A DNA stretch of 64,000 bases. Source: a plasmid. A program made the position numbers and the translations under genes. Under the pieces are notes generated by a model that made no database searches, was not told where the DNA came from, and saw only the letters and a program-made list of their open reading frames with translations. Within the stretch, counting starts at the first letter, position 1, and the number at the start of each line of letters is the position of its first letter. The stretch lies in sequence record NZ_CP084013.1; one strand, given 5' to 3'. Shown piece after piece: positions 269 through 51,692 of the stretch.

Positions 269-292
269 TGTTATACTGAATATGTCCACATA
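269..292 (+). promoter_or_regulatory. motif-1 copy (extended -10 TGTTATACT + TATGT-CC-ACATA dyad)
   Basis: exact tgttatactgaatatgtccacata 30 bp upstream of ORF 322..807. Confidence 0.55.
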
Positions 293-321
293 AAAAGATT
301 GAAAGAGAAAACCAAAGGAAA

Positions 322-807
322 ATGCAACCCATACAAGACGTCACAGACGCACGAAAGACCTACACCCTATACGAGTGTGAAAAATGCGGAAGCCTGCGAC
401 TCGAAAGATCCGGCAAGCCCATCACCAAGTGCGCCTACTGCGACAACCTCTCCCTAAAACAGAGATTCCTCTCCGCACTGATCTCCATCGTCCACGAAGC
501 CACATATAAAATCCCAAACCCAAACAACACCGGAATCGTCCAAAACAAGGCAGACACAAAACTGCCCGGGAGTGTCGTCCAAGTCTTCGTGGATAACCCG
601 GAAACCTACTGCACAACGAAAATTCAGCTCGGAACCACATCCATCGACTACTCCTATGATTGCACATCAGGGGACATTCGTATCGTTGCGAAAAATTGGG
701 ATCCATTCGACTTGGAAAATGCCGACCTCGGTACGGGATGGCATATCCGACTGCTGGTGCAGACATGGCGCAACGAAATTGCCAAGCGAATGGAACTGAC
801 GGCGTGA
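322..807 (+). CDS. hypothetical protein with CxxC zinc-ribbon motifs
   Basis: ORF follows a motif-1 promoter; CEKCGS...CAYCDN motifs; stop overlaps next start. Confidence 0.45.
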   Translation: MQPIQDVTDARKTYTLYECEKCGSLRLERSGKPITKCAYCDNLSLKQRFLSALISIVHEATYKIPNPNNTGIVQNKADTKLPGSVVQVFVDNPETYCTTKIQLGTTSIDYSYDCTSGDIRIVAKNWDPFDLENADLGTGWHIRLLVQTWRNEIAKRMELTA

Positions 808-1589
808 ACAACATCGACAGCATCGAAAACGCACTGGAGCAATTCCCCCAGCAACGCATCATTTCCGCATGGATAGAAGGAGACTACGCGCATGGTTTAG
901 CGGCGAAGGACAACAAGCCCTCGCTTTGCGTCATCACGATGCCGCAGCCTTGGGAGATACTGCTCGGCGAAGCTCGAACGACTCAGAACATGCGTGATCT
1001 CGATATCAGAATCCTCACACCTCTTTCTTATATCGACGGACTGCTCGACGGCCATCGTAGCCTGTTGGAATCGTTGACATTGCCAACCGAATGCTTTCTG
1101 CTGGACGCCGGCTTCATTCGCGCCATCGAGCCTTTCGCCCATCGGTTGACCACCAGCAATGTCGTCAAGACGGCTTTGGATGACGCTCGCGGGAACCTGT
1201 CCGTTTTGCGGCACTGGCCGGGCATGAAGAGCGCGAAACGCAATAAATCCATGGCCGAGACCGCACGATTGCTGAACGGAGTACGTCATATCCAGTCAGG
1301 AACGGAAGCCTGGCCGTGTCTGCTGGATGCGGATGAAATCACGCTGCTCCGTCGCATCCGATTGCAGGGAATGAATCTTGCCGATCTGGAAAGAGACTAT
1401 GGCCTTCTTGCAGATACCCGCAAAACGCCCCCTCTCCCCCCGTTGGAGCCTTATGTCCGCAGACAGATCGAAGACGTAGTTCTCGGATTGAATCGTCGAA
1501 TCGTCAACCGCGAGGCGGAATCATTTTCCGTCAAGAATCTGATACATGCCCTGCATGGTTTCGGAGACGGGATTACGGCTGATGCCTAA
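804..1589 (+). CDS. hypothetical protein (GTG start overlapping upstream stop)
   Basis: in-frame GTG at 804 overlaps TGA of 322..807, consistent with translational coupling; no recognisable domain. Confidence 0.4.
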   Translation: MNNIDSIENALEQFPQQRIISAWIEGDYAHGLAAKDNKPSLCVITMPQPWEILLGEARTTQNMRDLDIRILTPLSYIDGLLDGHRSLLESLTLPTECFLLDAGFIRAIEPFAHRLTTSNVVKTALDDARGNLSVLRHWPGMKSAKRNKSMAETARLLNGVRHIQSGTEAWPCLLDADEITLLRRIRLQGMNLADLERDYGLLADTRKTPPLPPLEPYVRRQIEDVVLGLNRRIVNREAESFSVKNLIHALHGFGDGITADA

Positions 1590-1752
1590 CCGAAAAGACT
1601 GGCAGCCCGAGGACACGCAAGTGGAGACCGCGGCTATGGCGCTACGTGCCCAGCAAATGCGCCTGTGGAATCTCGTCGAGGACAGTGCGACTGTCGACCG
1701 CTGCTGGCAGCAGAAACGGATTAAGGAATCGTTGAAAGGTCAGGACAATTGA
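1582..1752 (+). CDS. small hypothetical protein
   Basis: ATG overlaps the end of the previous ORF; part of a coupled small-gene operon. Confidence 0.3.
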   Translation: MPNRKDWQPEDTQVETAAMALRAQQMRLWNLVEDSATVDRCWQQKRIKESLKGQDN

Positions 1753-1949
1753 TTGTCGAGCTGAATGATGATGTGTTGACCAAGCCCGCTGGATGCTTTC
1801 TTTGCGGAAGCACGATGGGTTTGGTGCCGAGCATGTATGGTCCGGTTTGCATGGAATGCGTGTTGTCCGACAAACAGGTTGGCCCGAATCGCGCGAGTCT
1901 GCTTTTCACGTTGTTTGGCGACGGTCGCGGTCGGAAGGTTCCTGCCTGA
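1749..1949 (+). CDS. small zinc-finger protein (CxxC...CxxC)
   Basis: CFLCGS...CMEC motifs; start overlaps upstream stop. Confidence 0.35.
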   Translation: MIVELNDDVLTKPAGCFLCGSTMGLVPSMYGPVCMECVLSDKQVGPNRASLLFTLFGDGRGRKVPA

Positions 1950-1962
1950 CATCGATTTGTCT

Positions 1963-1986
1963 GCTATACTGAATATGTCCACATAA
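1963..1986 (+). promoter_or_regulatory. motif-1 copy
   Basis: tgctatactgaatatgtccacata 25 bp upstream of the exonuclease gene. Confidence 0.55.
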
Positions 1987-2010
1987 TCTTAGAGAACACA
2001 GGAACACCCA

Positions 2011-2601
2011 ATGAGCTACTGGGACAAATACCGAAGCGACGATCCACGACGCATCCCGCCGCTGGAGGCGCCATTGCTCGACTACATCGTGCTCGACACC
2101 GAAACCACCGGCCTCAACCCGGAAGATGGCGCGAAACTCATCGAAATCGGCGCCGTGAAAGTCAAGAACGGACGAATCGTCGACACCTACAGCCAACTCA
2201 TCAACCCGCAAATGATCGTCCCGCCACACATCACGCAATTGACGGGAATCACCACTTACGACGTGAGCGGCAAACCGACTGTCAAGCATGCGATGAAAGA
2301 GTTCGAACGGTGGCTGGGATTCGAAACGCCCTTCCTCGCACACAACGCGACGTTCGATTTGAAATTCCTCGACTGGGCCACGGCGGAAACCTGGCCGAAT
2401 CGCCCCCTGTTCGACCACCCATTCCTGGATACCTTGGAAATGAGCCGTGACATCCATCCGGAAATTCGCCATCACAAGGTCGCGGATCTGATCAAACGCT
2501 ATCACGTGGCAGACGTGGAACAGCATCGAGCTCTTTCCGACGCAATGCAAGAGCAAGCCTTGTACCAGATTATGTGCAAGGAGTATTTCCTCGGAGCCTG
2601 A
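2011..2601 (+). CDS. DnaQ-like DEDDh 3'-5' exonuclease (DNA pol III epsilon-like)
   Basis: Exo I LDTETTGL, Exo II HNATFDLKFL and Exo III HRALSDA motifs. Confidence 0.8.
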   Translation: MSYWDKYRSDDPRRIPPLEAPLLDYIVLDTETTGLNPEDGAKLIEIGAVKVKNGRIVDTYSQLINPQMIVPPHITQLTGITTYDVSGKPTVKHAMKEFERWLGFETPFLAHNATFDLKFLDWATAETWPNRPLFDHPFLDTLEMSRDIHPEIRHHKVADLIKRYHVADVEQHRALSDAMQEQALYQIMCKEYFLGA

Positions 2602-2673
2602 TTTGCAGTTGTTGTGTTTGCGGTCGAATGCGGCTATAATTTATTTTACATATTATGATTGGAGGTGTTTGGT

Positions 2674-3297
2674 ATGCGCACGTATCTTCGGAGGGCCGAG
2701 GCGGCGAACCGTCTGCACATATCGACCACCGCGTTCAAAACGCTCGTAGCCGAGGGGAAAATCAAATACGAGCTGTCGCCCGGCGGGCAGAAGGTGTATG
2801 ACCCGAAGGAAATCGACCGTTTCGCCGCCCGCGTTCAGGGTAGGGAGCCGGCGGAAGGCGTTCTCGTGTTCTACGTGCGGGACAGCGAGGGCAACACGAC
2901 GCGAATGAGAAATCAGGAGGAGCGGCTAGAGAAGGCGTATGGCGCTCCGTCAAAAGTGTACCGCGACCGCGCCTCCGGATTGAATGAGAACCGCAAGGGA
3001 CTGGCACGACTGCTCGACGACGCGGAGGAGGGACGTTTCGACCGGGTGGCCGTCACCGCCAAAGACAGGTTGAGCAGGTTCGGCGCATCTTATCTACAAC
3101 GGCATCTCGCGTTCCTCGGCATCGACCTGATTGTGTTGGACGGGGAACGGGAGAAGGGGATGATGGACGAACTCATGGACGACTTCATGGCTTTGCTCGC
3201 CTCGTTCTCCGGACGGTTCTACAAGCTGCGCAGCATCGAACATGAGAAACTGCTGCTCGACCGGGCGCGCGAAAGACTGGAGGAGCGTGGAGCATGA
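2674..3297 (+). CDS. tnpA: IS607-family TnpA serine recombinase with N-terminal MerR-like HTH
   Basis: HTH followed by a resolvase core: YVRDSEG (candidate catalytic Ser), SGLNENRKGLARLL, DRVAVTAKDRLSRFG; TGA overlaps the tnpB ATG. Confidence 0.7.
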   Translation: MRTYLRRAEAANRLHISTTAFKTLVAEGKIKYELSPGGQKVYDPKEIDRFAARVQGREPAEGVLVFYVRDSEGNTTRMRNQEERLEKAYGAPSKVYRDRASGLNENRKGLARLLDDAEEGRFDRVAVTAKDRLSRFGASYLQRHLAFLGIDLIVLDGEREKGMMDELMDDFMALLASFSGRFYKLRSIEHEKLLLDRARERLEERGA

Positions 3298-4952
3298 AAA
3301 CCGGTGAAATCGCCTGCGCTGTTCCAGACCTGCACGACTACCGTCTATACGACCACAGGACAGGCGAACCGTTGGACCCGGTGGAGGCCGAAACGCTGCT
3401 CTGGCTGCACTTGGACCATTGCCGGCAATGCCAGAACCGGATGATTCACGACCCGAGGAACCGGAATCTCAAACGGGGCGGAAATGCTGGGAGAGGCAAC
3501 GAATGGGCGAGGAAGAACGTCGCCTGCACAAGCCTGCCCTCCAAGTTCAGAAACCTCTCCCATCAGAACCGCGTCAATCAGACCGAGGCCGCCCGACTGC
3601 TCCTCGCATGGCGGGAACGCGAGGACATCGCCACCGCAATCGACGCCATCGGCTGGGAGAAGGCCACCTACGGGAACGTGCAGAAACGTTTGAGCCGGGA
3701 CATCGACCGTGAACTGTTCACGAACGTGCTCAACAGCGGCGGTCATCCAAGCCTGCCCACCGTGGAGCGCACGCAGTTCCCCTACGCGTACTCGAACAAC
3801 AACTCCTGCGGCATGTACGTCATCGACCAGCCCGCCGGGGTCATCCGATACGAGCGGATGGCCGTCTACGACAGGTTCGTGGACGTTGAGATATACGCGC
3901 CGCACATCATGCGCCTGCATCCGAACCTGACGAAGGTGTCCCGGCCCACGCTACGGTGGAACGGGGACTGCGTGACATGGGATGTCATCGTCTTCGAACC
4001 AAAACCCCGCAAAGAGGATGTGAACAAGGTGAGCCACGTCGTCGGCTTCGACCTGAACGCCGACTGGCATGGTGGCATCAGCGGGGCGCGACTCTCCTAC
4101 AACGGGACGGTGAGCCGAGAACTCGTAGCCGGCATCGACACACGCCGCCAGCAAACCGTGTTGGAGGAGCTGTATGTCCAATACCAGCGGTGTTTGAAGA
4201 AGCTCGACCGGCTCATGCCATGGCAGCGGCCACACGACCCGGACGACCCGCAGCAAGTGGCAGCCCACCCCGAATGGCGGCGACTCTACGAACAGTCGCT
4301 CAACCTCCGGGATAAGATGTACCGCATCAAAACCCTGTTGGACTGGCGGTACGCGCACGACATCACCGACCATGCCAAACCCGGCGAACTCATCGCCGTG
4401 GAGAAACTTTCCCCGTTCGATGCGGCAGGACGCGTCGAGTTCCGGCACGGCAGCCAACTGGAAAAACTGGAACACGTCGCCTCCAAGACCGGACAGCGCG
4501 TGGTGCAGGTCAACCCGGCGCACACGTCCGCCACCTGCCCGTGGTGCGATACCGTCAACAAGGTCGGCAAAGCCAGACAATACCGGTGCGCAGGATGCAG
4601 ACGTGACATCCCCCGCGACTACGGGTCTGGCGTCAACATCGCCAAACGCGGCGCACGCTATCTCGGACACAAAAACGTCCGACCTACCCCGCCGAAGGGA
4701 CACGCCACACCCAAACGTCCACCGGTCAGACACAAACGACCGGACGAAAAAACACGAGAACTTCTCACACAGATAACGTCAGGAACCGGCAAGGGGCCGG
4801 AATCCTTATGGGCCAAGACCACTCCACTGGAATGGCACATCCCATCGACGGCGACTATCGAGAATACAAGGAACCGACTAGCCCTCGCAAACCAGCGAGA
4901 CCGGGCAGCAACGGGGTTACGGCAGAAACCGCAACCACCCCATTCTCGATAA
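3294..4952 (+). CDS. tnpB: TnpB (OMEGA RNA-guided nuclease family), IS607-associated
   Basis: C-terminal zinc finger CPWCDTVN...CAGCRRD and RuvC-like context; translationally coupled to the serine recombinase gene. Confidence 0.7.
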   Translation: MKTGEIACAVPDLHDYRLYDHRTGEPLDPVEAETLLWLHLDHCRQCQNRMIHDPRNRNLKRGGNAGRGNEWARKNVACTSLPSKFRNLSHQNRVNQTEAARLLLAWREREDIATAIDAIGWEKATYGNVQKRLSRDIDRELFTNVLNSGGHPSLPTVERTQFPYAYSNNNSCGMYVIDQPAGVIRYERMAVYDRFVDVEIYAPHIMRLHPNLTKVSRPTLRWNGDCVTWDVIVFEPKPRKEDVNKVSHVVGFDLNADWHGGISGARLSYNGTVSRELVAGIDTRRQQTVLEELYVQYQRCLKKLDRLMPWQRPHDPDDPQQVAAHPEWRRLYEQSLNLRDKMYRIKTLLDWRYAHDITDHAKPGELIAVEKLSPFDAAGRVEFRHGSQLEKLEHVASKTGQRVVQVNPAHTSATCPWCDTVNKVGKARQYRCAGCRRDIPRDYGSGVNIAKRGARYLGHKNVRPTPPKGHATPKRPPVRHKRPDEKTRELLTQITSGTGKGPESLWAKTTPLEWHIPSTATIENTRNRLALANQRDRAATGLRQKPQPPHSR

Positions 4953-4999: not shown

Positions 5000-5023
5000 T
5001 GTTAAACTGAATATGTCCACATA
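5000..5023 (+). promoter_or_regulatory. motif-1 copy
   Basis: tgttaaactgaatatgtccacata upstream of 5053..5382. Confidence 0.5.
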
Positions 5024-5052: not shown

Positions 5053-5382
5053 GTGTGCGAAAAACTAACAGTACACGTGCGACTCATTCCCTACGGTAAC
5101 CTGCGAGATGCGGCAAAGCTCCACCATTACGAGCTGCGTCGCAGAAACATGGTCAGGGATGCCGGCAAGGAGCCAAATCCATTCGTCTTGGAACGCTGGA
5201 TGGTCAATTATGCCCGGCATGCGTTGACCGATTACGACCAGCAGTGCCATGACTTGGATCAAGATAGGTATGTCGAGCTTCGGACGGCGACATTGGACGC
5301 CATAGCCGACACGTATCCGCCATTGAGACATGAATGCGAACGTCAGAAAAGAATCCAGAATCCAGAAAAGGAGCCCGAGTGA
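5053..5382 (+). CDS. hypothetical protein
   Basis: ORF downstream of a motif-1 copy. Confidence 0.4.
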   Translation: MCEKLTVHVRLIPYGNLRDAAKLHHYELRRRNMVRDAGKEPNPFVLERWMVNYARHALTDYDQQCHDLDQDRYVELRTATLDAIADTYPPLRHECERQKRIQNPEKEPE

Positions 5383-5978: not shown

Positions 5979-6002
5979 TGACATACTGAATATATTCACA
6001 TG
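5979..6002 (+). promoter_or_regulatory. degenerate motif-1 copy
   Basis: tgacatactgaatatattcacatg upstream of 6018..6500. Confidence 0.4.
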
Positions 6003-6017: not shown

Positions 6018-6500
6018 ATGACATCGCAAACTGAACCCTTCAAGATAGACGGACTTACCTTGATGCTACGAATAGGCCACGCCCCACGAGGGCGAATCTC
6101 CTATTTTAGCCCGCAAACCACCATCGAAGAATTCCTCCGTCATGCCGCCGAGCACGAGGGAAGACTGCTGTTCGTCGGCAACTTTAAATCATTGCGAAAC
6201 AAAATAGGCTTTAATTATTTGCTGCTCTGGTCACCCCAAAGCGCAATCAAACTCGTTGGAACGGTGACCAATTTCGGAGAGGCATACAATCCAAAAACCT
6301 GGAATCCGAAATCCCACTATCAGGCACCATTCCCATGGGGAAGAACGCCTGCCAACTACTGGTTGGCGTTGGACAATGTGCAGCAATTGGGAGATTTCGA
6401 TCCGGACAAGTTCGAGAGATTGGGCTACAACGCCAAAAAGATATCGCTGGCGGATGAGATGGAAACAAATGCAGCCACGTTCATAATCCGCCCTATTTAA
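6018..6500 (+). CDS. hypothetical protein
   Basis: ORF followed by a strong GC hairpin (cccccgcct...aggcggggg) at 6512-6548. Confidence 0.45.
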   Translation: MTSQTEPFKIDGLTLMLRIGHAPRGRISYFSPQTTIEEFLRHAAEHEGRLLFVGNFKSLRNKIGFNYLLLWSPQSAIKLVGTVTNFGEAYNPKTWNPKSHYQAPFPWGRTPANYWLALDNVQQLGDFDPDKFERLGYNAKKISLADEMETNAATFIIRPI

Positions 6501-6607
6501 CCTTCCTCGCCAAGGATTCCCCCGCCTCTAAGCGAAGCGTAGGCGGGGGATGAATTGGCGTATCTATATATGTTATACTGTAATCAGTCGTATATGTTAT
6601 AAACGAG

Positions 6608-7015
6608 GTGATTGCAGTGGAATTGGAGTCGAATCATCATTCGGTGTTCCTGTTGTATTATCATCTCGTGCTCGTCGTGAAATACCGTCGCAAGGTGTTC
6701 GACGACATCGTTTCGGCGCGTGCGCGTGAGATATTCGAGTACATCGCACCCAAGTATGGGATAACCGTTGAGGAATGGAACCACGACATGGACCACGTGC
6801 ACGTATTGTTCCGTGCCCAGCCGAAGAGCGAGTTGAGCAAGTTCATCAACGCTTACAAGAGCGCGTCGAGTCGTCTGCTCAAGCAGGAGTTTCCGCAGAT
6901 TCGGCAGAAACTGTGGAAGGAGTATTTCTGGAGCCGCAGCTTCTGCCTACTGACCACAGGAGGCGCGCCAATCGAAGTCATCCGCAAATACATCGAGAAC
7001 CAAGGCAGGAAGTAA
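6608..7015 (+). CDS. tnpA: IS200-like HUH Y1 transposase TnpA
   Basis: about 135 aa; HxH-type motif HDMDHVHVLF and conserved YRRKVF-like region typical of IS200 transposases. Confidence 0.85.
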   Translation: MIAVELESNHHSVFLLYYHLVLVVKYRRKVFDDIVSARAREIFEYIAPKYGITVEEWNHDMDHVHVLFRAQPKSELSKFINAYKSASSRLLKQEFPQIRQKLWKEYFWSRSFCLLTTGGAPIEVIRKYIENQGRK

Positions 7016-7029
7016 GGAGGTGAACCATC

Positions 7030-8151
7030 ATGCAGGTGAAACGTCATTGCGCGGTCAAGTACCGCATGTACCCGAACAGGGCTCAGGCGGCATTGATTGA
7101 CCGCACCATCGGTTGTGCGAGGTTCATCTACAATCAGATGCTTGAAACCCGCATCGGCACCTATAAGGCTACGGGTAAGTCGTGCAATCCGACTCCCGCC
7201 CAGTACAAGGACAGGTATCCGTTCCTGCGTGAGGTGGACAGCCTCGCACTGTGCAACGCCCAATTGAACGTGGCGAAGGCGTACAGGAACTTCTTCCGCG
7301 ACCCCAAGCACATCGGCTTCCCGAAGTACAAGGCGAAGCATCGCAATCGTCAGACCTACACGACGAACAACAGCAATAACAACGTCACCCTCGATGAAGG
7401 AGGCAGGCATCTCAAACTACCGAAAGTAGGGATTGTGCGCGTCCGCCAGCATAAACGCATACCCGAAGACTGGAAACTGAAGAGCGTGACCATCGAGCAT
7501 TGCAAAAACGGCGAATACACGGCGACGATACTGTTCGAGTACGAGACCCAAGCACTCGAACCCGTCCGACCCGTGCATATCGTCGGATTGGATTACTCCT
7601 CCCACGGCCTGTACGTGTCCAGCGACGGCGAACGAGCCGACTATTCGCGTTTCTACCGGCGGATGGAGCCACGGCTGATGCGCGAGCAACGTAGACTCAG
7701 CCACATGGTAAAAGGGTCCGGTAATTGGGTGAAACAGAAGCGGCGCATCGCCAAGCTCGCCGCCAAGGTCGGGAACCAGCGAGCCGACTTCCTGCATAAG
7801 ACGGCCAACCGGCTCGCCGCCCGATATGATTGCGTCGGCGTGGAGGACTTGGACATGAAGAACATGAGCCAATCCCTCACACTCGGCAAAAGCACGATGG
7901 ACAACGGGTACGGCATGTTCCGCACCATGCTCGCATACAAGCTCGAACGGCAAGGCAAGCAGCTGGTCACGGTAGACAGGTTCTACCCGTCCAGTCAACT
8001 ATGCTCCGATTGCGGATACCGCAATAAGGATACGAAGGACCTGCATATCCGCGAATGGACATGCCCTGACTGTGGCGTTTGGCATGACAGGGACGTGAAC
8101 GCCGCGACCAACATCATGCACGAAACACGACGACTCATGCAGGAACGATAA
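7030..8151 (+). CDS. tnpB: IS605 OrfB/TnpB RNA-guided nuclease
   Basis: 373 aa; RuvC-like motifs and C-terminal zinc finger CSDCGY...CPDCG; directly downstream of tnpA. Confidence 0.85.
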   Translation: MQVKRHCAVKYRMYPNRAQAALIDRTIGCARFIYNQMLETRIGTYKATGKSCNPTPAQYKDRYPFLREVDSLALCNAQLNVAKAYRNFFRDPKHIGFPKYKAKHRNRQTYTTNNSNNNVTLDEGGRHLKLPKVGIVRVRQHKRIPEDWKLKSVTIEHCKNGEYTATILFEYETQALEPVRPVHIVGLDYSSHGLYVSSDGERADYSRFYRRMEPRLMREQRRLSHMVKGSGNWVKQKRRIAKLAAKVGNQRADFLHKTANRLAARYDCVGVEDLDMKNMSQSLTLGKSTMDNGYGMFRTMLAYKLERQGKQLVTVDRFYPSSQLCSDCGYRNKDTKDLHIREWTCPDCGVWHDRDVNAATNIMHETRRLMQER

Positions 8152-8288: not shown

Positions 8289-8312
8289 TGTTATACTGAA
8301 AACATCTGCATA
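8289..8312 (+). promoter_or_regulatory. degenerate motif-1 copy at the IS605 right flank
   Basis: tgttatactgaaaacatctgcata upstream of 8325..8855. Confidence 0.4.
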
Positions 8313-9306: not shown

Positions 9307-9314
9307 TGGAATAT

Positions 9315-31047: not shown

Positions 31048-31073
31048 TATGTGGACATATTCAAATATACGCA
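31048..31073 (-). promoter_or_regulatory. motif-1 copy (minus-strand orientation)
   Basis: reverse complement tgcgtatatttgaatatgtccacata drives 29794..30969; lies in the divergent region shared with the XRE gene. Confidence 0.5.
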
Positions 31074-31241: not shown

Positions 31242-31889
31242 ATGAACCAGCTATCAATCAGACGCCTGCGCCAGCTAGCAGGAAAAACCAAAAACGAGAT
31301 AGCCGACCTGCTGGGCATGAGCGTCAACACGTACAGCAAGTACGAGGACAACCCCATGAGCCTGTCCTACGCCGCATACCATCAGCTCATCGAATATCTC
31401 GAAACAGCAATCCAAATCAGGAAAAAACTGGAAAAGGAGCAACCTATGAACACCCCCATCAAAGCGAAAGTCCGATTCGTCGCACCCGACGAAGACGACG
31501 AGGACCGTCTCAGCGACTACACAGTGCCGATCCCCGAAGGACTGACCGAGGAATTCCACCCCTCGCAACCCGTCACACCGAAGCAGCTCCTCGACTGGGA
31601 AACCAAGAACAAGGAACCATACCCGGGTTATTCGGAGGAATTCTTCAACTGGGAGAACGCTTGGGAAGAGGTCAACCGCGCCCAGCAGAAAGCCGATGGC
31701 GGATATCTCCACCTCTCCGACCCGGTGCCCGTCAGCCCGGAGTTCGACGAGACGACCGGAGAACCCATCACCTACGACGAGCCTCACGTCGTCGTGGATC
31801 CGGAAAGCGGCAACACCAGCGTGTACGTCGACGAGGCTGACATGTCAGCCCAGGAAATCGCCGAATCCGATCCAGTGAACAACAAGTAG
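31242..31889 (+). CDS. XRE-family HTH transcriptional regulator
   Basis: HTH LRQLAGKTKNEIADLLGMSVNTYSKYE; aggagaggcg RBS. Confidence 0.6.
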   Translation: MNQLSIRRLRQLAGKTKNEIADLLGMSVNTYSKYEDNPMSLSYAAYHQLIEYLETAIQIRKKLEKEQPMNTPIKAKVRFVAPDEDDEDRLSDYTVPIPEGLTEEFHPSQPVTPKQLLDWETKNKEPYPGYSEEFFNWENAWEEVNRAQQKADGGYLHLSDPVPVSPEFDETTGEPITYDEPHVVVDPESGNTSVYVDEADMSAQEIAESDPVNNK

Positions 31890-32962: not shown

Positions 32963-32986
32963 CGTTATACTGAATATGTCCACATA
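32963..32986 (+). promoter_or_regulatory. motif-1 copy
   Basis: cgttatactgaatatgtccacata upstream of 33013..34059. Confidence 0.55.
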
Positions 32987-37429: not shown

Positions 37430-37453
37430 TGTTATACTGAATCTGTCCACATA
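37430..37453 (+). promoter_or_regulatory. motif-1 copy
   Basis: tgttatactgaatctgtccacata upstream of the DivIVA-like gene. Confidence 0.55.
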
Positions 37454-43124: not shown

Positions 43125-43171
43125 TATGGCTTGTTTATAGGGTTTCTCTTTTTTGACAGCATCAAAATACT

Positions 43172-43195
43172 TGTTATACTGAATGTGTCCACATA
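43172..43195 (+). promoter_or_regulatory. motif-1 copy heading the RNA-gene region
   Basis: tgttatactgaatgtgtccacata; the next credible features downstream are a structured noncoding stretch, the tmRNA and the tRNA array. Confidence 0.5.
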
Positions 43196-44821: not shown

Positions 44822-44895
44822 TCAAAAATATCGGATTGTGGCGCAGTTTGGTAGCGCACGTGCTTTGGGAGCATGGGGTCGCAGGTTCGAATCCT
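44822..44895 (+). tRNA. tRNA-Pro(TGG)
   Basis: cloverleaf with anticodon loop uuUGGga. Confidence 0.65.
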
Positions 44896-44975
44896 GTCAA
44901 TCCGACTCGGAGACCAGCCATCCCTCTTTCGGCTGGCGGACTATACGTCACCGCCGTGCGACGTATCCGAAAAAA

Positions 44976-45050
44976 GCACGGCAATGCGGATGTGGTGCAG
45001 TGGCAGCACGCCTGCTTCCCAAGCAGGAAACCGCGGGTTCGAACCCCGTC
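44976..45050 (+). tRNA. tRNA-Gly(CCC), CCA encoded
   Basis: acceptor GCGGAUG/CAUCCGC, loop uuCCCaa. Confidence 0.7.
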
Positions 45051-45185
45051 ATCCGCTCCATCCGGAAAACCAAAACAATGGATCTGATCCAACAATGGGA
45101 CTCGTAACCGTCCTTTCCATGGGACGTTTCCGGAGAAACATGGACGAACAGCCTCGGCATGGGCGCACATCGTCTAGGAAGAAAA

Positions 45186-45257
45186 CATGCCAGTCGCCCC
45201 GGTAGCTCAGAGGAAGAGCAGGTGCCTTTTAAGCACTGGGTCCGGATATCGTAATTC
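45186..45257 (+). tRNA. tRNA-Lys(TTT), atypical T-loop AUCGUAA
   Basis: acceptor GCCCCGG/UCGGGGC, loop cuUUUaa. Confidence 0.55.
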
Positions 45258-45431
45258 CGTCGGGGCACGATGCTTGGTACATCGCCGAGCATAAGCGCAT
45301 CAATCTATTATCGGATAGGCTGCGGCAACTTCTTCTTCCGGCCGCGCGCGAAACAAGGGAAGGAAAACACACAGTGCGACGGACCAGGGAAGGGCCTATA
45401 ACCCAGATCCCATAACAGTCCGTCGTACGGT

Positions 45432-45503
45432 GCCTCTGTAGCTTAAATGGTAGAGCAACGGTCTGAAGCACCGTGGATGCTGGTTCGATTCCAGACGGAG
45501 GCA
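45432..45503 (+). tRNA. tRNA-Phe(GAA)
   Basis: loop cuGAAgc, T-loop UUCGAUU. Confidence 0.6.
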
Positions 45504-45831
45504 CGAAGCAATCCATCCGATCAATGGACTGCTTTCAGGGAGTGATCGAACAATCGCATCGGAAACGAGGCGATAAGATGAGCCGGGCCCGGCAGGGTGG
45601 TTTGCGACCGAACCGGCGGCACGTCCAGAGGGGATCTGACATGATCTCGTTTGTCCTCGACGTTGCTGGTAAAACCCAATCCAGTCTCCCGATTCCCCTC
45701 CATCTGTCATTCAGGACGGATGGGGAGGACGCTCTTTTTGCAGCGATGGTCTCCGGAGCGACATCAATGAGGACCATGCCGAACACGGCCCGGCACAGGC
45801 GTACGTCGTTAAAGGAACGAAATGTGCCATC

Positions 45832-45907
45832 GCCCTCGTAGCTCAATCGGATTCAGAGCGTTGGTCTACGGAACCGGAGGTTGCGGGTTCGAACCCCGCC
45901 GAGGGCA
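45832..45907 (+). tRNA. tRNA-Arg(ACG)
   Basis: acceptor GCCCUCG/CGAGGGC, loop cuACGga. Confidence 0.7.
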
Positions 45908-45958
45908 CTCGGAGCAGGAAGCTATTCCGCTGCCTATCTTCGGCTTCCTGCTCCACAT

Positions 45959-46033
45959 GCGTCGGTAGCTTAACGGCAGAGTACCGGTCTCCAAAACCGG
46001 TGGGTGTGAGGTCGAGACTCACCCGACGTGCCA
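45959..46033 (+). tRNA. tRNA-Trp(CCA), CCA encoded
   Basis: anticodon stem CCGGU/ACCGG, loop cuCCAaa. Confidence 0.6.
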
Positions 46034-46157
46034 GGACGGTATTGTTTGGCTCCTTACTCACTCACGGATTCGTCAAGCCGAATGATACCGTTCCACCCGG
46101 TTCCGATCGTCGTTTGAAGGATTTCCTATTCTCTTCGGCTGTTCGACCGGAACCATC

Positions 46158-46239
46158 GCCCCGTTGGCGGAACTGGTAGACGCATCCGGCTCAAACCCGG
46201 ATTCCTGACGGAGTGAGGGTTCAACTCCCTCATGGGGCA
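46158..46239 (+). tRNA. tRNA-Leu(CAA), long variable arm
   Basis: loop cuCAAac, T-loop UUCAACU. Confidence 0.65.
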
Positions 46240-46493
46240 CTATCCGTTGGAACCTTTTCGCACTCGCTTTGAAAAGATTTCAACGGATATTCTTCCGATT
46301 GGCGTGCCTAGTTTCTTTCTTCTTTCATTGACAGGTACGGCATGTTCCAGCTGCCTTGGAGTCGGACAGTGGAAGAAAAAAACGACTCCAAATAATCTTG
46401 GATGGCCGGTTTGAAAACAGATAACCAATGCGAAATTACTCCTTTGGAAAAGGGTTGTCGCTTTTTCTTGAACCACCCGGCCATCCACCATCC

Positions 46494-46568
46494 GCTTCCG
46501 TAGCTCAGTGGAATCAGAGCAGACGGCTTCTAATCGTCCGGTCGTGGGTTCGAATCCCACCGGGAGCA
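46494..46568 (+). tRNA. tRNA-Arg(TCT)
   Basis: loop cuUCUaa, T-loop UUCGAAU. Confidence 0.7.
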
Positions 46569-46618
46569 CGAGATCCACACGAATACGTCAACCAGTTTGT
46601 TCCTTCGTGCGGATCGGT

Positions 46619-46703
46619 GGAGTAGTGGCAGAGCGGTCGAATGCGACTGTCCCGAAAGCAGCAGGGGCGCAAGCCCCCGGAGGTTCGAATCCTCCCTACT
46701 CCG
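46619..46703 (+). tRNA. tRNA-Ser-type (long variable arm), anticodon tentatively CGA
   Basis: acceptor GGAGUAG/CUACUCC, T-arm GGAGG UUCGAAU CCUCC; anticodon loop parse ambiguous (C33). Confidence 0.45.
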
Positions 46704-46782
46704 CGAACCCCGCATGAAAATCGTTCCCATGAGGGGTTTATCGAGGTTTGGCCGGTGTGCCCCGTACTGAAAACACTGGCAT

Positions 46783-46868
46783 GGATGGTGGGCCGTGCGG
46801 CAAAGGCGCAGTCCTGCTAAGACTGTTGGGGCGGAAGTCCCTGGCGAGTTCGACTCTCGCACCATCCG
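46783..46868 (+). tRNA. tRNA-Ser(GCT), long variable arm
   Basis: anticodon stem CAGUC/GACUG, loop cuGCUaa. Confidence 0.65.
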
Positions 46869-46985
46869 CTAGCCGATCTGCAGTGATAGGCCACGGGATA
46901 GGACCTGGAATCCAGTCAGCAAAACGGGTTGGATCGGCATGGCGGAACGCAGTCGGGCATACGTGTCCGATGCGTTCGCGCACAT

Positions 46986-47056
46986 TCCTCCTTGGTGTAA
47001 CGGCAGCACACGGGTCTTTGGAACCCATAGTCCTGGTTCGAAACCAGGAGGAGGAG
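46986..47056 (+). tRNA. tRNA-Gln(TTG)
   Basis: U1-A72, loop cuUUGga, T-loop UUCGAAA. Confidence 0.6.
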
Positions 47057-47164
47057 CTTAGCGGCAGCACCTCGAATTGATTTTCCCTCTACACTCGATT
47101 CGACGTTTGTTGTACCGGACATACAGGAGGTCAGGCGCCAACCCAAGCCGCGAAACGACGCCAC

Positions 47165-47237
47165 GCCCTTGTAGCTCAGTGGATAGAGCGTCCGTCTCCG
47201 GAACGGAAGGCCACGAGTCCGATTCTCGTTGAGGGCA
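47165..47237 (+). tRNA. tRNA-Arg(CCG)
   Basis: loop cuCCGga. Confidence 0.65.
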
Positions 47238-47332
47238 CGCACGAAAACTCCGCCAACCATAATGCACGGAGCCCTTCTTCTCTTCTCTCTCAAACCGTCG
47301 CGCCTCGTACGGCTCGTGCATCACGAGGCAAC

Positions 47333-47405
47333 GCCCTTGTAGCTCAACGGATAGAGCGCCGGTTTCCTAAACCGGGCGCAGCCGGTCCGACTCCGGCCAT
47401 GGGCA
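47333..47405 (+). tRNA. tRNA-Arg(CCT)
   Basis: anticodon stem CCGGU/ACCGG, loop uuCCUaa. Confidence 0.65.
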
Positions 47406-47409
47406 CGAT

Positions 47410-47483
47410 GCCTTGTTAGCTCAGTCGGTTAGAGCGCGGAGCTCATAACTCCATGGTCGTTGGTTCAAGCCCAACACGAGGCA
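47410..47483 (+). tRNA. tRNA-Met/Ile2 (CAT) copy 1
   Basis: loop cuCAUaa, T-loop UUCAAGC. Confidence 0.6.
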
Positions 47484-47615
47484 CTAGGATACCGTCGTCA
47501 ACGTCACCGCCTGTTCTCTCGATCCATGGGGAATGGGGATGGAGCGATGGATGGCATTGCAGCTTTTAGTCCTTTCAGCTTAGGCTAAGCCGTTCAGCGT
47601 CGGCATCCGATAATC

Positions 47616-47689
47616 GCATTGCTAGCTCAGTCGGTTAGATCACCCTGCTCATAACGGGGAGGTCGTTGGTTCGATTCCAGCGCAATGCA
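47616..47689 (+). tRNA. tRNA-Met/Ile2 (CAT) copy 2
   Basis: acceptor GCAUUGC/GCAAUGC, loop cuCAUaa. Confidence 0.6.
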
Positions 47690-47820
47690 CGAGTGCCGTA
47701 TTTTGACGGTTCCCGCACTCGGTAAAAACGGAACCGTTGGAGTCCCGACCGGCCTCCGTCGTGATAAATCCCCGGTCAGGCAAACGCATGGGTCGTACGA
47801 TCATGACGCGCAACCGTGCG

Positions 47821-47890
47821 GGGCGTTGGTGTAATGGCAGCACGCCACCCCCTGTGGGTGGAGATCCGGGTTCGAATCCCGTGGCGTCCG
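47821..47890 (+). tRNA. tRNA, anticodon uncertain (possibly CTG, Gln)
   Basis: T-arm CCGGG UUCGAAU CCCGU; anticodon stem CCACC/GGUGG; short, G-U-rich acceptor. Confidence 0.4.
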
Positions 47891-47931
47891 CTAAGGAATC
47901 CGCTTCTGATACGGTGTGCGGATTCCTGTTT

Positions 47932-48003
47932 GCGGTGTTAGCACAACGGTTAGTGCCTCAGTCTTCCAAACTGATTACGCGGGTTCGATTCCCGTACACC
48001 GCT
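47932..48003 (+). tRNA. tRNA-Gly(TCC)
   Basis: acceptor GCGGUGU/ACACCGC, loop cuUCCaa. Confidence 0.7.
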
Positions 48004-48421
48004 CGATACGATTCCATGCCCGTTGGGAGTTCCCGGCGGGGAAGCCATGACCATGCGACTCGTGTCCGATGATCCGCGCCTCCGTTTGTTCGACGGACAC
48101 GCGGATATCGCCGGCGCCCATCATTCCAGGATGATGCGAACAGCCCCCGTCGGAGGGGTCGGCGCGAATCCGATCTGCCCATCCGCCAAGTGCGGACAGG
48201 GTTTCCTGAGTCGTAATCGATTACGCCTCTTGTCAGCCGATCCACATGATGTGGAAACGGTCTCGGTGGAGCATGGGCGTCATAGCCCGTGATCCTCGTC
48301 ATGCCTCATGCCGTAGTATGCGCGTCCACCGCAAGCATGAGTGCAAGGATCCGGCACGAGTGGCCGGATCGATTGTGGACTGTGCGGATATTGCGACCTC
48401 GCAAGGGTGGTATCCGCACAT

Positions 48422-48495
48422 GCTTTCGTAGCCCAACCGGTAGAGGCAACAGTCTAAGGAACTGTCCAGTCCGGGTTCGAACCCCGGCGAAAGCA
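48422..48495 (+). tRNA. tRNA with anticodon AAG (class I, atypical)
   Basis: acceptor GCUUUCG/CGAAAGC, anticodon stem ACAGU/ACUGU, loop cuAAGga, short variable arm. Confidence 0.45.
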
Positions 48496-48756
48496 CCAGC
48501 GGAAGCAACGGCGTCAACGCCACCCGATCCGGTTCGAACGTCTGACGGAACGGGAACGATGCTACGGTAGGTTCTCTCCATAACTGGGACCCGTAACCGT
48601 TGCAGCGCCCACTTCCGCTCATATTCTTGCGGAATATGATGTCAACGCCACCACCCGCCCGCTGCCATATTGGGGCGGAGTGGAACGATGGTCAAGGCGC
48701 AGGCCTGCACCTCAGTGGCCTGAACAGAACCGCCTCTCCAGCATCGTATCCGCAAC

Positions 48757-48831
48757 ACCGCTTCGTCCTTTAACGGTAGGATGCTCTGTTTTTTTTTGGA
48801 GTAATGCGGGTTCGAATCCCGTCGAAGCACG
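48757..48831 (+). pseudogene. degenerate tRNA-like sequence with T9 run in anticodon region
   Basis: T-arm GCGGG UUCGAAU CCCGU present but the anticodon arm is disrupted. Confidence 0.3.
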
Positions 48832-48968
48832 ATGGGCCCAGTGGCCACATGCGAAAAAACTGGGTTCCCGAATGGGAGCAGTCTGTGGCCGATGGCATGA
48901 ACCGGCCGCAGGACAAGCATCCCTGCCTCGCATGGCCCATCCGCCGTTCCTCATGCCGGAACGGTTCC

Positions 48969-49041
48969 GCCGTCGTAGCTCAGCTGGCAGAGCAGCGCCC
49001 TCGTAATGCGCAGGTCACCGGTCCGAATCCGGTCGATGGCT
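48969..49041 (+). tRNA. tRNA-Thr(CGT)
   Basis: acceptor GCCGUCG/CGAUGGC, loop cuCGUaa. Confidence 0.65.
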
Positions 49042-49066
49042 CTTTCTCCACTAAAAACCGACCTGT

Positions 49067-50409
49067 TTGGCCTTTCGCTGTTTGGTGTGGGTGGGTCTGT
49101 CAGGTGGTGACGGTGCTGAGGTCGAGTTTGCCGCAGGTCAGGTAGATCATGGTGCTGAAGTAGCCCATGTTCTTGAATCCGCGGGCTCGGGTCTTGACGT
49201 TCTGGATGACGCTGTTGAGTCCTTCGAGGATCGCGTTGGTGTAGGGGTGGTCGAAGTAGGCGAGGATGTCCCGCCAGTGGCGGCGTATCTGGCGGGCGAA
49301 CTCTTTCATGGGTTCGAGTCGGGAGCGCGTCATCCACGAGCACAGACGCTTGAGGGCCGTCTCGGCCTCGGCTCGATCGGCGCTGGTGTCGTAGATGTCC
49401 TGGAGGGTCTCGCGCATCTGACAGGCGCGTCCGGTTTTCAATCGTCGCCGTTGCAGGCTGCGCTTGGTTTCCAATTGCAGGCCGGTCAGGTTCGATTCGT
49501 TCCTCAACCACAGGTACTTGGTCCGCTTGAGCAGCGCGTTGCCGCGGGCCTCCTGTTTGCGGACCTTGTCGACGGCCTCGTTGGCGTGTTTGATCACGTG
49601 GAACTTGTCGATGATTCTCGCCGCGTTGGGCAGCCGCTCGCGGATGCCCTTGGCGAACCCCAGGCTCATGTCGCAGGTAACCAGACGCACCCGGTCGGGA
49701 TCGCCGTTGTGATCCATGAAATCCCGCGCGAACCGTTTGATCGTGGTCGAGTCCTTGCCCGGGACCACGCAGATTACGTTGCGCTCCACCAGGTCGGCGA
49801 CCACGGTGATGTACCGGTGGCCCTTCCGGCTGGTCTCGTCGATGCCTATGGCCTCCACGCCCGTGTAGTCCTCGTAAAGCCTCGCCTCGTCCACGTAATG
49901 GCGGATGAACCGCCACAGGCGGGTGTCATGTTCGCCGACCTGCTCGGCGATGTCCGCGACCGGCTGGCTTTTGGCCAGCTCCACGACCATCGCCTCGAAC
50001 AGGAGCGTGAACCCGCTTCCCGGCCTCGCCCACGGCACCGGGACCGCGTGCACGCCGTGGGCGGGGCACGTCACGCGCGGCACGCCCGCGTGAATGAACG
50101 CCTTGTACTGGAAGAAGTTCAGATGCCGCCACACGCGCTCCCTCGCGTCATGCACCGGACACGCGGCCTCGCCGCACCCCGGTTCCGGGCAGGGGAACCG
50201 CGAACCCGCCGCGAACCCGATCGCGATATGCAGTTCCCGTCTGCCGTCCTCCTCGTCACGGAACTCCACGCCCGACACCCTCCACGGGTCAGGCAGTTGC
50301 AGAGCGGCGGTGAACAACGACGTGGTATCCATACCCCCCAAACTACCCGACCAGCACCACCACCCCCCGACCCACTCACCCACACCAAACAGCGAAAGGC
50401 CAAAAAATA
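49067..50409 (-). mobile_element. ISL3-family insertion sequence
   Basis: about 32-bp terminal inverted repeats TTTGGCCTTTCGCTGTTTGGTGTGGGTG at 49067-49097 and 50361-50397 (inverted), flanking a transposase gene. Confidence 0.65.
49100..50332 (-). CDS. ISL3-family transposase
   Basis: MDTTSLFTAALQLPDPWRV N-terminus and overall ISL3 transposase architecture (410 aa). Confidence 0.8.
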   Translation of the reverse strand: MDTTSLFTAALQLPDPWRVSGVEFRDEEDGRRELHIAIGFAAGSRFPCPEPGCGEAACPVHDARERVWRHLNFFQYKAFIHAGVPRVTCPAHGVHAVPVPWARPGSGFTLLFEAMVVELAKSQPVADIAEQVGEHDTRLWRFIRHYVDEARLYEDYTGVEAIGIDETSRKGHRYITVVADLVERNVICVVPGKDSTTIKRFARDFMDHNGDPDRVRLVTCDMSLGFAKGIRERLPNAARIIDKFHVIKHANEAVDKVRKQEARGNALLKRTKYLWLRNESNLTGLQLETKRSLQRRRLKTGRACQMRETLQDIYDTSADRAEAETALKRLCSWMTRSRLEPMKEFARQIRRHWRDILAYFDHPYTNAILEGLNSVIQNVKTRARGFKNMGYFSTMIYLTCGKLDLSTVTT

Positions 50410-50445
50410 CTCATCGGTTTCCTTGTCGTTCTGAATTACGGTCTC

Positions 50446-50640
50446 TTATCGGCCCGCCATCGGCTGATATCCGTCGAGTTCTCGAAGCAGTTCCTCCTGC
50501 CAGTCCTTGTCATCAAGGGACTGCTTCTTCTCCTTTTCGAACCAGCAGGAAGAGCAGAGTCCGGTCTGTCTCTCATCTGCCGACAGGAGGGTTCCACATC
50601 CTCGGCAGAAGTGGTTCAGGATTTTCGTTCGGAACCGCAT
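50446..50640 (-). CDS. small zinc-ribbon protein
   Basis: CRGCG...CSSC. Confidence 0.35.
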   Translation of the reverse strand: MRFRTKILNHFCRGCGTLLSADERQTGLCSSCWFEKEKKQSLDDKDWQEELLRELDGYQPMAGR

Positions 50641-50897
50641 TTCATTTCCTTTCGCGCATCGTTGAAGGCTTTGAACGCTTCGTTGATGTACCGGTTCTGA
50701 TCTCGTTTCGGGAGTTGCCCGAAGTCGAGAATCTGACGGCCACTACGACCTTCGACGAGCCGGTATAGGGCTTTCGTCGCGGCAAGAACCTCGGCGGTGG
50801 TGCCAAGATCCGCAGCGTCAACCGTTCTCTTGTGCAGTGGTCCAGGAATAGGCGGAGAGAGACGCAGTTGGTCGAAAATGTTGGTGACGGATTGCAT
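50616..50897 (-). CDS. hypothetical protein
   Basis: ORF in a three-gene minus-strand operon. Confidence 0.35.
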   Translation of the reverse strand: MQSVTNIFDQLRLSPPIPGPLHKRTVDAADLGTTAEVLAATKALYRLVEGRSGRQILDFGQLPKRDQNRYINEAFKAFNDARKEMKCGSERKS

Positions 50898-50906
50898 TCT
50901 CTCCCC

Positions 50907-51575
50907 TCACAGTTCTTCATCATGGAATCGGAATGGAGCTTTCGAGGACAGATCCTTTGTCGTTGAATCGTTGACGTTTTCTCCCGTCTTGCCGATTAGC
51001 AGCGCAGGGCCGTTCATCCAACGCCCATCGGACTCGCGTATCTGCATGATCCAAAGCTCCTGACCGTTTTTCCACACGGTGTACAGGCCGTCTGACTTGT
51101 CCTCCCACAGTCCGGGGCGATCCGGAATTCGTGCGGGTGCCGGTCGCAAAGCATGGTCGAATGCGTCGTCATCAATCCGATAGGTGTTGGAGTCAATCAG
51201 GACTAGACAATGGCCGTCATCGGTGATTTCCTGTACTGGATATTTGTTCCCGTTCGTTTGCACGAAGACGTCTCTGGGTTGCACGCCGGTGATGTCTTCG
51301 ATGATTTTGTATTCGGGTTCGTCGGGTAGCAGCTTGATGCTGACGGGTGCTTTCTGCCGGGTGAGTTCCATGAATCCGTCATGGCCTTCGTGGAACAGTT
51401 CGCCGATGTCGAAGCCGTTGACAGTGTATTGCCGGGCTCCGAGCGTGTGTCCGATTCCGGGAGTGAGTCGGAATTCGAGGATCATGTCGCCGCCGTATGC
51501 GGAGACTCGTACCCGTCGGTTTCTGAGCTGGGCGAATGTCATGTTTCGCCAGAAGCGTTTGTCGTGTTCTTCCAT
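50907..51575 (-). CDS. hypothetical protein
   Basis: first gene downstream of the minus-strand motif-1 copy. Confidence 0.45.
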   Translation of the reverse strand: MEEHDKRFWRNMTFAQLRNRRVRVSAYGGDMILEFRLTPGIGHTLGARQYTVNGFDIGELFHEGHDGFMELTRQKAPVSIKLLPDEPEYKIIEDITGVQPRDVFVQTNGNKYPVQEITDDGHCLVLIDSNTYRIDDDAFDHALRPAPARIPDRPGLWEDKSDGLYTVWKNGQELWIMQIRESDGRWMNGPALLIGKTGENVNDSTTKDLSSKAPFRFHDEEL

Positions 51576-51600
51576 TGGTTGTCGTTGTTTTCTTTCGATT

Positions 51601-51624
51601 TATGTGGACGTATTTAGTATAACA
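51601..51624 (-). promoter_or_regulatory. motif-1 copy (minus-strand orientation)
   Basis: reverse complement cttgttatactaaatacgtccacata. Confidence 0.5.
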
Positions 51625-51671
51625 AGTAAAAGAGAATTAAGGGGAGGGGGTGAATCTTCGGAGTGTCGCGA

Positions 51672-51692
51672 TATGCTGAACGCGTCCACATA
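51672..51692 (+). promoter_or_regulatory. degenerate motif-1 copy
   Basis: atatgctgaacgcgtccacata upstream of 51841..52251. Confidence 0.35.

Follow-up and report, generated by a model that had tools for sequence, protein, structure and literature searches.

A promoter motif of 24 nucleotides (nt), TGTTATACTGAATATGTCCACATA, recurs across the window, a 64,000-nt stretch of plasmid record NZ_CP084013.1 that, as sequence comparison indicates, is part of a Bifidobacterium longum conjugative megaplasmid of the pMP7017 family. The motif is bipartite, consisting of TGnTATACTGAA, three loosely constrained bases and then an asymmetric box, GTCCACATA(AA). Judged by its sequence, it is the promoter motif already published for pMP7017 and re-discovered here on a B. 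longum member of the family, since Dineen et al. 2024 (Microb Biotechnol, PMC10832533) already describe it for that plasmid. The present analysis adds a sharper anatomy, namely the bipartite structure, a dyad that is not conserved and a box placed at the predicted transcription start (+1); these features, as well as a lineage-specific upstream flank, are absent from the published account. On balance, we favour the view that the motif is a family-specific promoter cassette of pMP7017-type Bifidobacterium megaplasmids, in which an extended -10 element of the sigma-A class is joined to a start-site box that would be read by a plasmid-encoded factor.

Distribution of the motif and its published counterpart

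The motif was searched at up to three and then up to seven mismatches, with 100 dinucleotide-preserving shuffles as the control. At up to three mismatches, the window holds eight copies, at 227(-), 269, 1962, 5000, 32963, 37430, 43172 and 51601(-), compared with none in the 100 shuffles; at up to seven, the degenerate copies at 5979, 8289, 31048(-) and 51669 are added, giving 12. A preliminary description of this DNA had listed about 12 dispersed copies. That number holds, with corrections: the copy at 227-250(-) had been omitted, and those placed at 1963 and 51672 begin at 1962 and 51669, respectively. Two further items, described as partial copies, do not belong to the family. At 6571, only the 5' half (ATGTTATACTG) is present, inside an IS200/605 insertion sequence (IS) copy upstream of its tnpA, and the item at 5741 is a 12-nt fragment (CTGAATATGTCC) within an open reading frame (ORF).

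All 12 copies are intergenic and share the orientation of the downstream gene or RNA array, which agrees with the earlier proposal that they head separate transcription units. The gap between motif end and start codon ranges from ~12 to ~120 nt; the spacing of 25-40 base pairs (bp) first given applies to about half of the copies. Among 87 non-redundant family sites, 61 have a Shine-Dalgarno sequence and a start codon within 60 nt downstream, compared with 14 on the opposite side. The copies in the window, together with the gene proposed earlier as their regulator, are as follows.

227..250, minus strand: motif copy TGTTATACTGAAGAAGTCCACATA with 2 mismatches, heading a leftward gene that leaves the window.
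269..292, plus strand: perfect motif copy, 29 nt before ATG 322 (ORF 322-807).
1962..1985, plus strand: motif copy with 1 mismatch, 25 nt before the 3'-5' exonuclease gene 2011-2601; pMP7017 ortholog at 81976.
5000..5023, plus strand: motif copy with 1 mismatch and the -10 sequence TAAACT, located after the IS607-like insertion 2659-4952 and before ORF 5053-5382.
5979..6002, plus strand: degenerate copy TGACATACTGAATATATTCACATG with 5 mismatches, before ORF 6018-6500; the pMP7017 ortholog at 83242 is degenerate too.
8289..8312, plus strand: degenerate copy TGTTATACTGAAAACATCTGCATA with 5 mismatches, before ORF 8325-8855; pMP7017 ortholog at 83814.
31048..31071, minus strand: copy whose box is perfect and whose -10 is shifted and not extended (CGTATATTTGAATATGTCCACATA), heading the DUF2815 / Enc34-like single-stranded DNA-binding gene 29794-30969.
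31242..31889, plus strand: XRE-family helix-turn-helix (HTH) gene, the regulator proposed in the preliminary description.
32963..32986, plus strand: motif copy with 1 mismatch, 26 nt before ORF 33013-34059.
37430..37453, plus strand: motif copy with 1 mismatch, 36 nt before ATG 37490.
43172..43195, plus strand: motif copy with 1 mismatch and a perfect TTGACA -35 element at 43153, separated by a 16-nt spacer.
51601..51624, minus strand: motif copy with 2 mismatches, 25 nt before ORF 50907-51575(-), forming a divergent pair with the copy at 51669.
51669..51692, plus strand: copy whose box is perfect and whose 5' half is weak (CGATATGCTGAACGCGTCCACATA), followed by a long leader and ORF 51814-52251; pMP7017 ortholog at 56050(-).

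The copies at 227(-) and 269 stand back to back with 18 bp between them. The copy at 31048(-) lies 78 nt from the likely start codon, ATG 30969, which is preceded by AAGGAGGA. Immediately upstream of the 37430 copy, an inverted repeat, ATGCCGGG...CCCGGCAT, was recognised by eye and is absent from the terminator-scan list; the ORF at 37490 is the counterpart of a protein of the B. longum plasmid CP146883 annotated 'cell division protein DivIVA' and is followed by secE and secG. The 43172 copy faces the transfer-messenger RNA (tmRNA, 43752) and the transfer RNA (tRNA) array, and its pMP7017 ortholog at 120542 carries the same TGT spacer variant.

In pMP7017, whose transcriptome was mapped by RNA sequencing (RNA-seq), a 34-bp motif, AWAYATGYTATACTGAATATGTCCACATAAAAWA, was reported to overlap the -10 element in 19 copies, having been recognised first at six highly expressed genes and then at 13 further sites (PMC10832533). 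It was predicted to drive 56 genes, or ~24% of the coding capacity, and was presumed to define a pMP7017-specific regulon, the block being treated as one likely transcription-factor site; it occurred in plasmid homologues and not in bifidobacterial chromosomes (PMC10832533). The core of this consensus is the 24-nt core of the window copies, and nine orthologous site pairs link the window to pMP7017. The two motifs agree in sequence, in their position overlapping the -10 just before start codons, in plasmid family and family specificity, and in the orthologous genes behind them (the exonuclease, the DivIVA-like/SecE/SecG unit, the tmRNA array and others). They differ in that the window represents a B. 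longum family member, and in copy number, with 19 copies in the paper versus 27-30 by our looser search. At up to seven mismatches, pMP7017 yielded 27 copies, compared with 0-1 in shuffles, and a search for the box added three that the mismatch search had missed (37480, 106684 and 157273), which brings the total to ~30. The element-wide regulon put forward in the preliminary description matches the RNA-seq-based account of pMP7017. A full-text literature search for the motif string returned PMC10832533 only, and no later publication in which a regulator is named was found.

The motif is confined to this plasmid family. An exact pattern, TATACTGAANNNGTCCACATA (18 bases), was scanned against one genome per species (185,579 species, 596 gigabases) and gave seven isolated matches versus ~17 estimated by chance from our own arithmetic; the single matches in other genomes, including B. 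ramosum, were set aside as lying at the estimated chance level. In IMG/VR, 117 stretches with the motif pattern were found on 43 contigs, and all 117 are homologous to the window or to pMP7017. These 43 'viral' contigs, up to 171 kilobases (kb) in length and derived in some cases from isolate genomes, represent the conjugative megaplasmid family rather than phages.

The preliminary description had also raised the terminus of a repeated mobile element as the origin of the repeats. The 5000 copy adjoins the IS607-like insertion, and the half-copy at 6571 lies inside an IS200/605 element, as such an origin might lead one to expect. However, similarity between copies stops within ~45 bp, the copies are not paired or inverted around transposase genes, orthologous positions are kept between diverged plasmids, and the item at 6571 shares the -10 half only. 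The 5000 copy itself is placed beyond the IS607-like insertion, since the CP146883 alignment, which includes the copy, begins at 4954, where the IS ends. This explanation was rejected, and we leave it almost no probability.

Promoter anatomy and the box at the predicted start site

Anatomy was assessed in 39 copies, comprising the 12 of the window and the 27 of pMP7017 found at up to seven mismatches. The two diagnostic bases of a housekeeping -10 element are the A at the second and the T at the last position of the hexamer. In the hexamer TATACT of the motif, A occupies the second position (-11, A5) in 38 of the 39 copies and T the last (-7, T9) in all 39, and the TGn extension has T1 in 33 copies and G2 in 35. 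Positions 3 and 13-15 are the least conserved of the core. Positions 16-24, which form the box, are near-invariant and are followed by two or three A's. A TTGACA-like -35 element with at least a 5/6 match at a spacer of 16-18 nt precedes seven of the 39 copies, versus 1.2% of control positions; most copies are without one. When the region from 30.5 to 44 kb was scanned with a generic sigma-70 model, the motif sites ranked top, with the TG flag.

These sequence features provide good support for the assignment of the 5' half to the extended -10 class of the host sigma-A factor, with an optional -35, as the preliminary description had also read it. The motif shares with other extended -10 (TGn) promoters a TG one base upstream of a TAnnnT hexamer and a dispensable -35. 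Ordinary promoters of this class differ in having no conserved sequence from +1 to +12, and it is the added box that defines the present family. The conserved -10 and TG, the optional -35 and the scan ranking point to the sigma-A class rather than to a plasmid-specific polymerase. Promoters for a plasmid-encoded RNA polymerase or alternative sigma factor, following a T7-like logic, would account for a long, highly conserved block across the start site and for its confinement to one element family. Nevertheless, the conserved positions are those of the housekeeping -10 plus TG, a subset of copies has a correctly spaced TTGACA -35, and no RNA polymerase or sigma gene is annotated in pMP7017 or was found among the window ORFs scanned, which makes such an arrangement extremely unlikely.

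The 3' half had been described as a dyad that pairs positions 13-17 with 24-20. This symmetry is not what is conserved: the pairs 13-24, 14-23 and 15-22 are complementary in only 26-28 of the 39 copies, and every break in pairing comes from a change in the left arm, the right arm, ACATA, being fixed. A symmetric repressor operator was rejected, as positions 13-15 of the left arm belong to the least conserved part of the core and two-fold symmetry is not kept. A second -10-like element for sigma-dependent pausing, within CACATAAAAT, was likewise discarded; it is present in many pMP7017 copies and is not conserved in the B. longum copies.

The G of GTCCACATA (G16) occupies the seventh position past the hexamer. 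It is the most likely transcription start, as predicted from the coincidence of the usual +1 distance with the switch from variable positions (13-15) to invariant ones (16 onwards). At the DUF2815 promoter, 31048(-), the best hexamer in the window, TATATT, is shifted one base upstream; the pMP7017 ortholog lacks 1 nt of the spacer, so that its shifted -10 and the G are again the usual distance apart.

Selection on the parts of the motif was compared, without gaps, in the nine orthologous promoter pairs of the window and pMP7017. Identity was 35% in the upstream flanks and 32% in the leaders, 74% in TGn, 85% in the -10 hexamer, 81% in GAA and 63% at positions 13-15, while the box (16-24), at 91%, was the best-kept block. 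Because the box is maintained amid flanks and leaders that have diverged to background, it is under purifying selection site by site. Exact matches to GTCCACATA number 10 in the window, where 0.38 are expected by chance, and all lie within motif copies; in pMP7017, 23 of 26 have a correctly spaced -10, and the three orphans are close to the estimated chance number.

The bases upstream of the TG, at about -21 to -19 from the presumed start, differ between lineages and do so in concert. In the B. longum plasmids they are T-rich (TTTTAC/TTTGCT), as seen in 7 of 8 copies of the window, 6 of 6 of CP146883 and 164 of 199 from IMG/VR. In pMP7017 they are A-rich or mixed (AAATA/AAACA), with only 3 of 21 copies being T-rich, and the switch between the two types is visible at orthologous sites. 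A whole leader, AAATAATCGAAAGAGGAAA, is common to 5 of the 27 pMP7017 copies and occurs in 1 of the 12 in the window. The change of flank suggests either that copies homogenise within a plasmid or that they co-evolve with a plasmid-encoded factor.

Candidate readers of the start-site box

Under the account that we lean towards, the host sigma-A RNA polymerase would recognise TGnTATACT as an extended -10, with or without a -35, and would begin transcription at the G of GTCCACATA, 7 nt past the -10. With this start, the transcripts would all open with GUCCACAUA(AA), continue into an unstructured leader rich in A and then reach the Shine-Dalgarno sequence. The asymmetric box (~+1 to +12) would act as a shared cis-regulatory site, a role proposed because host promoters can do without it. 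The box would be read by a factor encoded on the plasmid, most probably a repressor acting on the start site, which would co-ordinate accessory, replication/repair, defence and RNA-gene units, amounting to roughly one quarter of the plasmid genes. Host promoters require nothing downstream of the -10 element. Canonical bifidobacterial promoters, as described in PMC10832533, likewise require nothing there. Both the selection on the box, which is the strongest within the motif, and its confinement to the plasmid family argue for a trans-acting factor. Motif-headed units of pMP7017 are transcribed, and their expression ranges from high to below threshold, most of the cas operon being not detectably transcribed (PMC10832533); this range points to an additional layer of control.

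Several points weigh against this account. Six motif promoters are among the most highly expressed units of pMP7017 at steady state (PMC10832533), so that any repression would be at most partial. The published start boundaries derive from RNA-seq coverage that was adjusted by hand and do not have nucleotide resolution, and no regulator is named for the motif (PMC10832533). An asymmetric site of 9-12 bp would be unusual for the dimeric HTH repressors common on plasmids. In Pfam and PHROG scans, the genes immediately following motif copies of the window and of pMP7017 showed no DNA-binding domains. Finally, paralogous copies within a plasmid share lineage-specific flanks, and since copying between sites also gives shared flanks, not all of the similarity between copies need reflect a binding site. 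One motif-headed operon of pMP7017 contains a WhiB gene, but no mechanism by which a WhiB-type protein would read a box at +1 is known to us. A CopG-family protein is encoded at 19041-19322 of the window and, like the plasmid WhiB and the XRE protein, counts as a candidate for binding. The pMP7017 gene that precedes ImmA/IrrE had no match in the Pfam/PHROG scan.

Chief among the rivals are a self-sufficient cassette that would have spread through copying and a 5' tag that would act at the RNA level. In the former, a strong host-type promoter with a favourable initial transcribed sequence or leader would need no dedicated regulator, having been spread by duplication or gene conversion and kept for high expression. 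The lineage-specific flanks shared by paralogous copies, the whole leader common to a subset of pMP7017 copies, the high steady-state expression of several motif promoters (PMC10832533) and the failure of the Pfam/PHROG scans to find a regulator among motif-headed first genes are all consistent with this possibility. Recent copying, however, does not account for a box that is 91% kept at orthologous sites with diverged flanks, which indicates purifying selection beyond it. Nor does such a cassette fit well with the dispensability of any sequence past the -10 in host promoters, as also described for canonical bifidobacterial promoters (PMC10832533), or with the wide expression range of motif-headed units in pMP7017, including a mostly silent cas operon. 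We therefore regard a promoter of this kind as possible and rather unlikely.

An RNA-level signal would consist of a shared single-stranded 5' tag, GUCCACAUAAA, on plasmid mRNAs, read by a plasmid-encoded RNA-binding or processing factor; in an alternative form, the tag would govern the stability of the mRNA or its translation. In line with such a tag, variable positions (13-15) give way to near-invariant ones (16-24) exactly at the predicted +1. Counted from G16, the initial 12 nt are predicted as unpaired (mean probability 0.82), A makes up 53% of the 25 nt that follow, and the plasmid family carries a tmRNA, tRNAs and an RNA ligase family protein. On the other side, leaders folded from G16 showed no excess of structure (mean z = 0.06, 29 leaders), and reverse complements of the box, searched for in the window and pMP7017 as possible antisense partners, did not exceed chance outside the promoter copies, the few orphans being at chance level. 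The tmRNA/tRNA array, for which translation plays no part, is headed by the box as well, and a tag of this sort on bacterial mRNAs has no precedent known to us. A search of the window with Rfam returned only the tmRNA and the tRNAs. If the box acts on RNA, the structure predictions suggest that it would do so as a single-stranded 5' end. Taken together, we judge a tag of this kind distinctly unlikely.

The preliminary description had named the XRE-family protein (31242-31889) as the possible regulator of the motif-headed units; no link between this protein and the motif was found. The protein, which has an N-terminal HTH and an acidic tail of unknown fold, is conserved in the plasmid family, with 79% identity to its pMP7017 ortholog, and its gene adjoins the motif copy at 31048(-). 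XRE HTH proteins usually bind symmetric sites, whereas the symmetry of the motif is not conserved. Furthermore, the nearest solved relatives of the protein are HipB-type antitoxins, with weak scores, and no motif copy precedes the XRE gene itself. Its promoter region instead carries a different element twice, GCAGTTTTCTGC at 31153-31164 and GCAGTTATCTGA at 31071-31082, ~80 bp apart. The former adjoins the likely -10 of the XRE gene and the latter falls within the promoter spacer of the divergent DUF2815 gene; pMP7017 retains both in the corresponding places, and the pattern is at chance level elsewhere in the window. Given this conservation and local restriction, the two elements probably constitute a local operator of the XRE protein for the divergent DUF2815/XRE pair. 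Binding of the dispersed motif by this protein is consequently quite improbable.

Returning to the favoured cassette with its plasmid-encoded factor, a more speculative version can be considered, in which the block from +1 to ~+12 is not a conventional operator but a start-site or 5'-terminal signal read by a co-evolving plasmid-specific factor. That factor could be a protein working with RNA polymerase at the open complex, or a reader of the single-stranded 5' end GUCCACAUAAA that about one quarter of the plasmid transcripts would have in common. We consider this version unlikely. Were it true, the lineage-specific change upstream of the TG, T-rich in B. longum plasmids and A-rich in pMP7017, would be a footprint of factor co-evolution.

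The identity of the reader matters for the biology of these elements. The motif heads roughly one quarter of plasmid genes, including those for defence, anti-restriction and recombination and the tmRNA/tRNA array, and identification of the factor behind the start-site box would account for the way in which the plasmid cargo is co-ordinated. Megaplasmids of this type are reported to be present in ~10% of human gut microbiome samples, mostly from infants and mothers (PMC10832533). Identification of the reader would also provide Bifidobacterium genetics with a portable, possibly switchable strong promoter.

The host megaplasmid and comparison with known systems

Assignment of the window to a B. 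longum conjugative megaplasmid is based on protein and DNA comparisons. Its VirB4-like ATPase (1473 amino acids, aa) is 98.7-99.8% identical to proteins of four B. longum plasmids (184-198 kb) and 73% identical to the counterpart in B. breve pMP7017. Over its first 25 kb, the window shares 97-99% DNA identity with four B. longum plasmids in PLSDB and ~81% with pMP7017 in the parts common to both. The gene content also fits a conjugative megaplasmid, comprising FtsK/SpoIIIE-like and AAA_10 ATPases, RepA with iterons, a HipA toxin, IS607 and IS200/605 copies, a recombination module, a DNA methyltransferase, a tmRNA and about 20 tRNAs. A phage origin was rejected: when the first 25 kb were compared with 50,697 phage records by megablast, only an IS copy was returned, and the PHROG matches are to IS, FtsK-like, methylase and recombination genes, with no virion genes.

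Several other features of the window were recorded. The VirB4-like AAA_10 ATPase gene (9213-13634, plus strand) contains an intein-like insertion with a Pfam homing endonuclease at aa 938-1031; its pMP7017 ortholog, of 885 aa, aligns in two pieces that cover 63% of the query. The IS607-like unit (2659-4952), encoding a serine recombinase and TnpB, splits the exonuclease gene from the genes that directly succeed it in pMP7017. The IS200/605 unit (~6507-8275), with tnpA and tnpB, is 89.6% identical to the 'Bacteriophage sp.' contig MT837053. The plasmid-borne tmRNA (tag ANTVSSSRFTLVA), followed by about 20 tRNA genes, occupies 43752-49042 on the plus strand and has already been described for pMP7017. 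Two iteron arrays, of 21-bp CTTAGAATTTTGACACC repeats adjoining repA (20844-21082) and of CACCGATAGGCCACTATC repeats adjoining a repB-like gene (41264-41933), are counterparts of repeats studied in PMC8313286, where GUS reporter fusions in pNZ272 were used for repA and repB. A 53-nt inverted repeat, 87% complementary (49066-49118 / 50352-50404), flanks ORF 49067-50434 (455 aa), which has no PHROG match and is opposed by a long ORF on the other strand. A second dispersed element, CGGTTAAT-N13-CGGTTAAT(AACAA), is located at 9258-9291, 21368-21401 and 54647-54680 on the plus strand and at 43095-43126 and 54282-54308 on the minus strand, preceding the VirB4-like ATPase, FtsK-like, ParA/CobQ-like and repB-like genes; the octamer occurs five times in the window versus 1.0 expected. 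This element may represent a separate operator family for backbone and transfer genes that lack the main motif.

In IncP-1 plasmids such as RK2, operators for KorA and KorB are repeated at many promoters, and the KorA sites overlap the -10. The proposed control resembles these global regulons by analogy: in both, a short sequence lies over the core promoter at many sites of a conjugative plasmid and would provide plasmid-wide co-ordinate control. The KorA and KorB operators differ in being palindromic and bound by known proteins, whereas the present site is asymmetric and sits on the predicted start site; no KorA/KorB homologue was found among the proteins scanned or in the pMP7017 annotation. 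T7-like phage promoters conserve ~23 bp from -17 to +6 and are read by a single-subunit, element-encoded polymerase, unlike sigma-70 promoters. They share with the present motif a long, near-identical block through the start site that is dispersed over one element; the motif differs in its sigma-A anatomy, and no gene for such a polymerase was found among the window proteins scanned. The start-associated sequences of Cluster K mycobacteriophages lie within a few bases of the start codon, and a role in translation is assumed for them. The megaplasmid motif resembles them in being a short conserved repeat that closely precedes many genes of an actinobacterial mobile element and has no assigned reader; in contrast to them, it is tied to a -10 element at fixed spacing, while its distance from the start codon varies from ~12 to ~120 nt.

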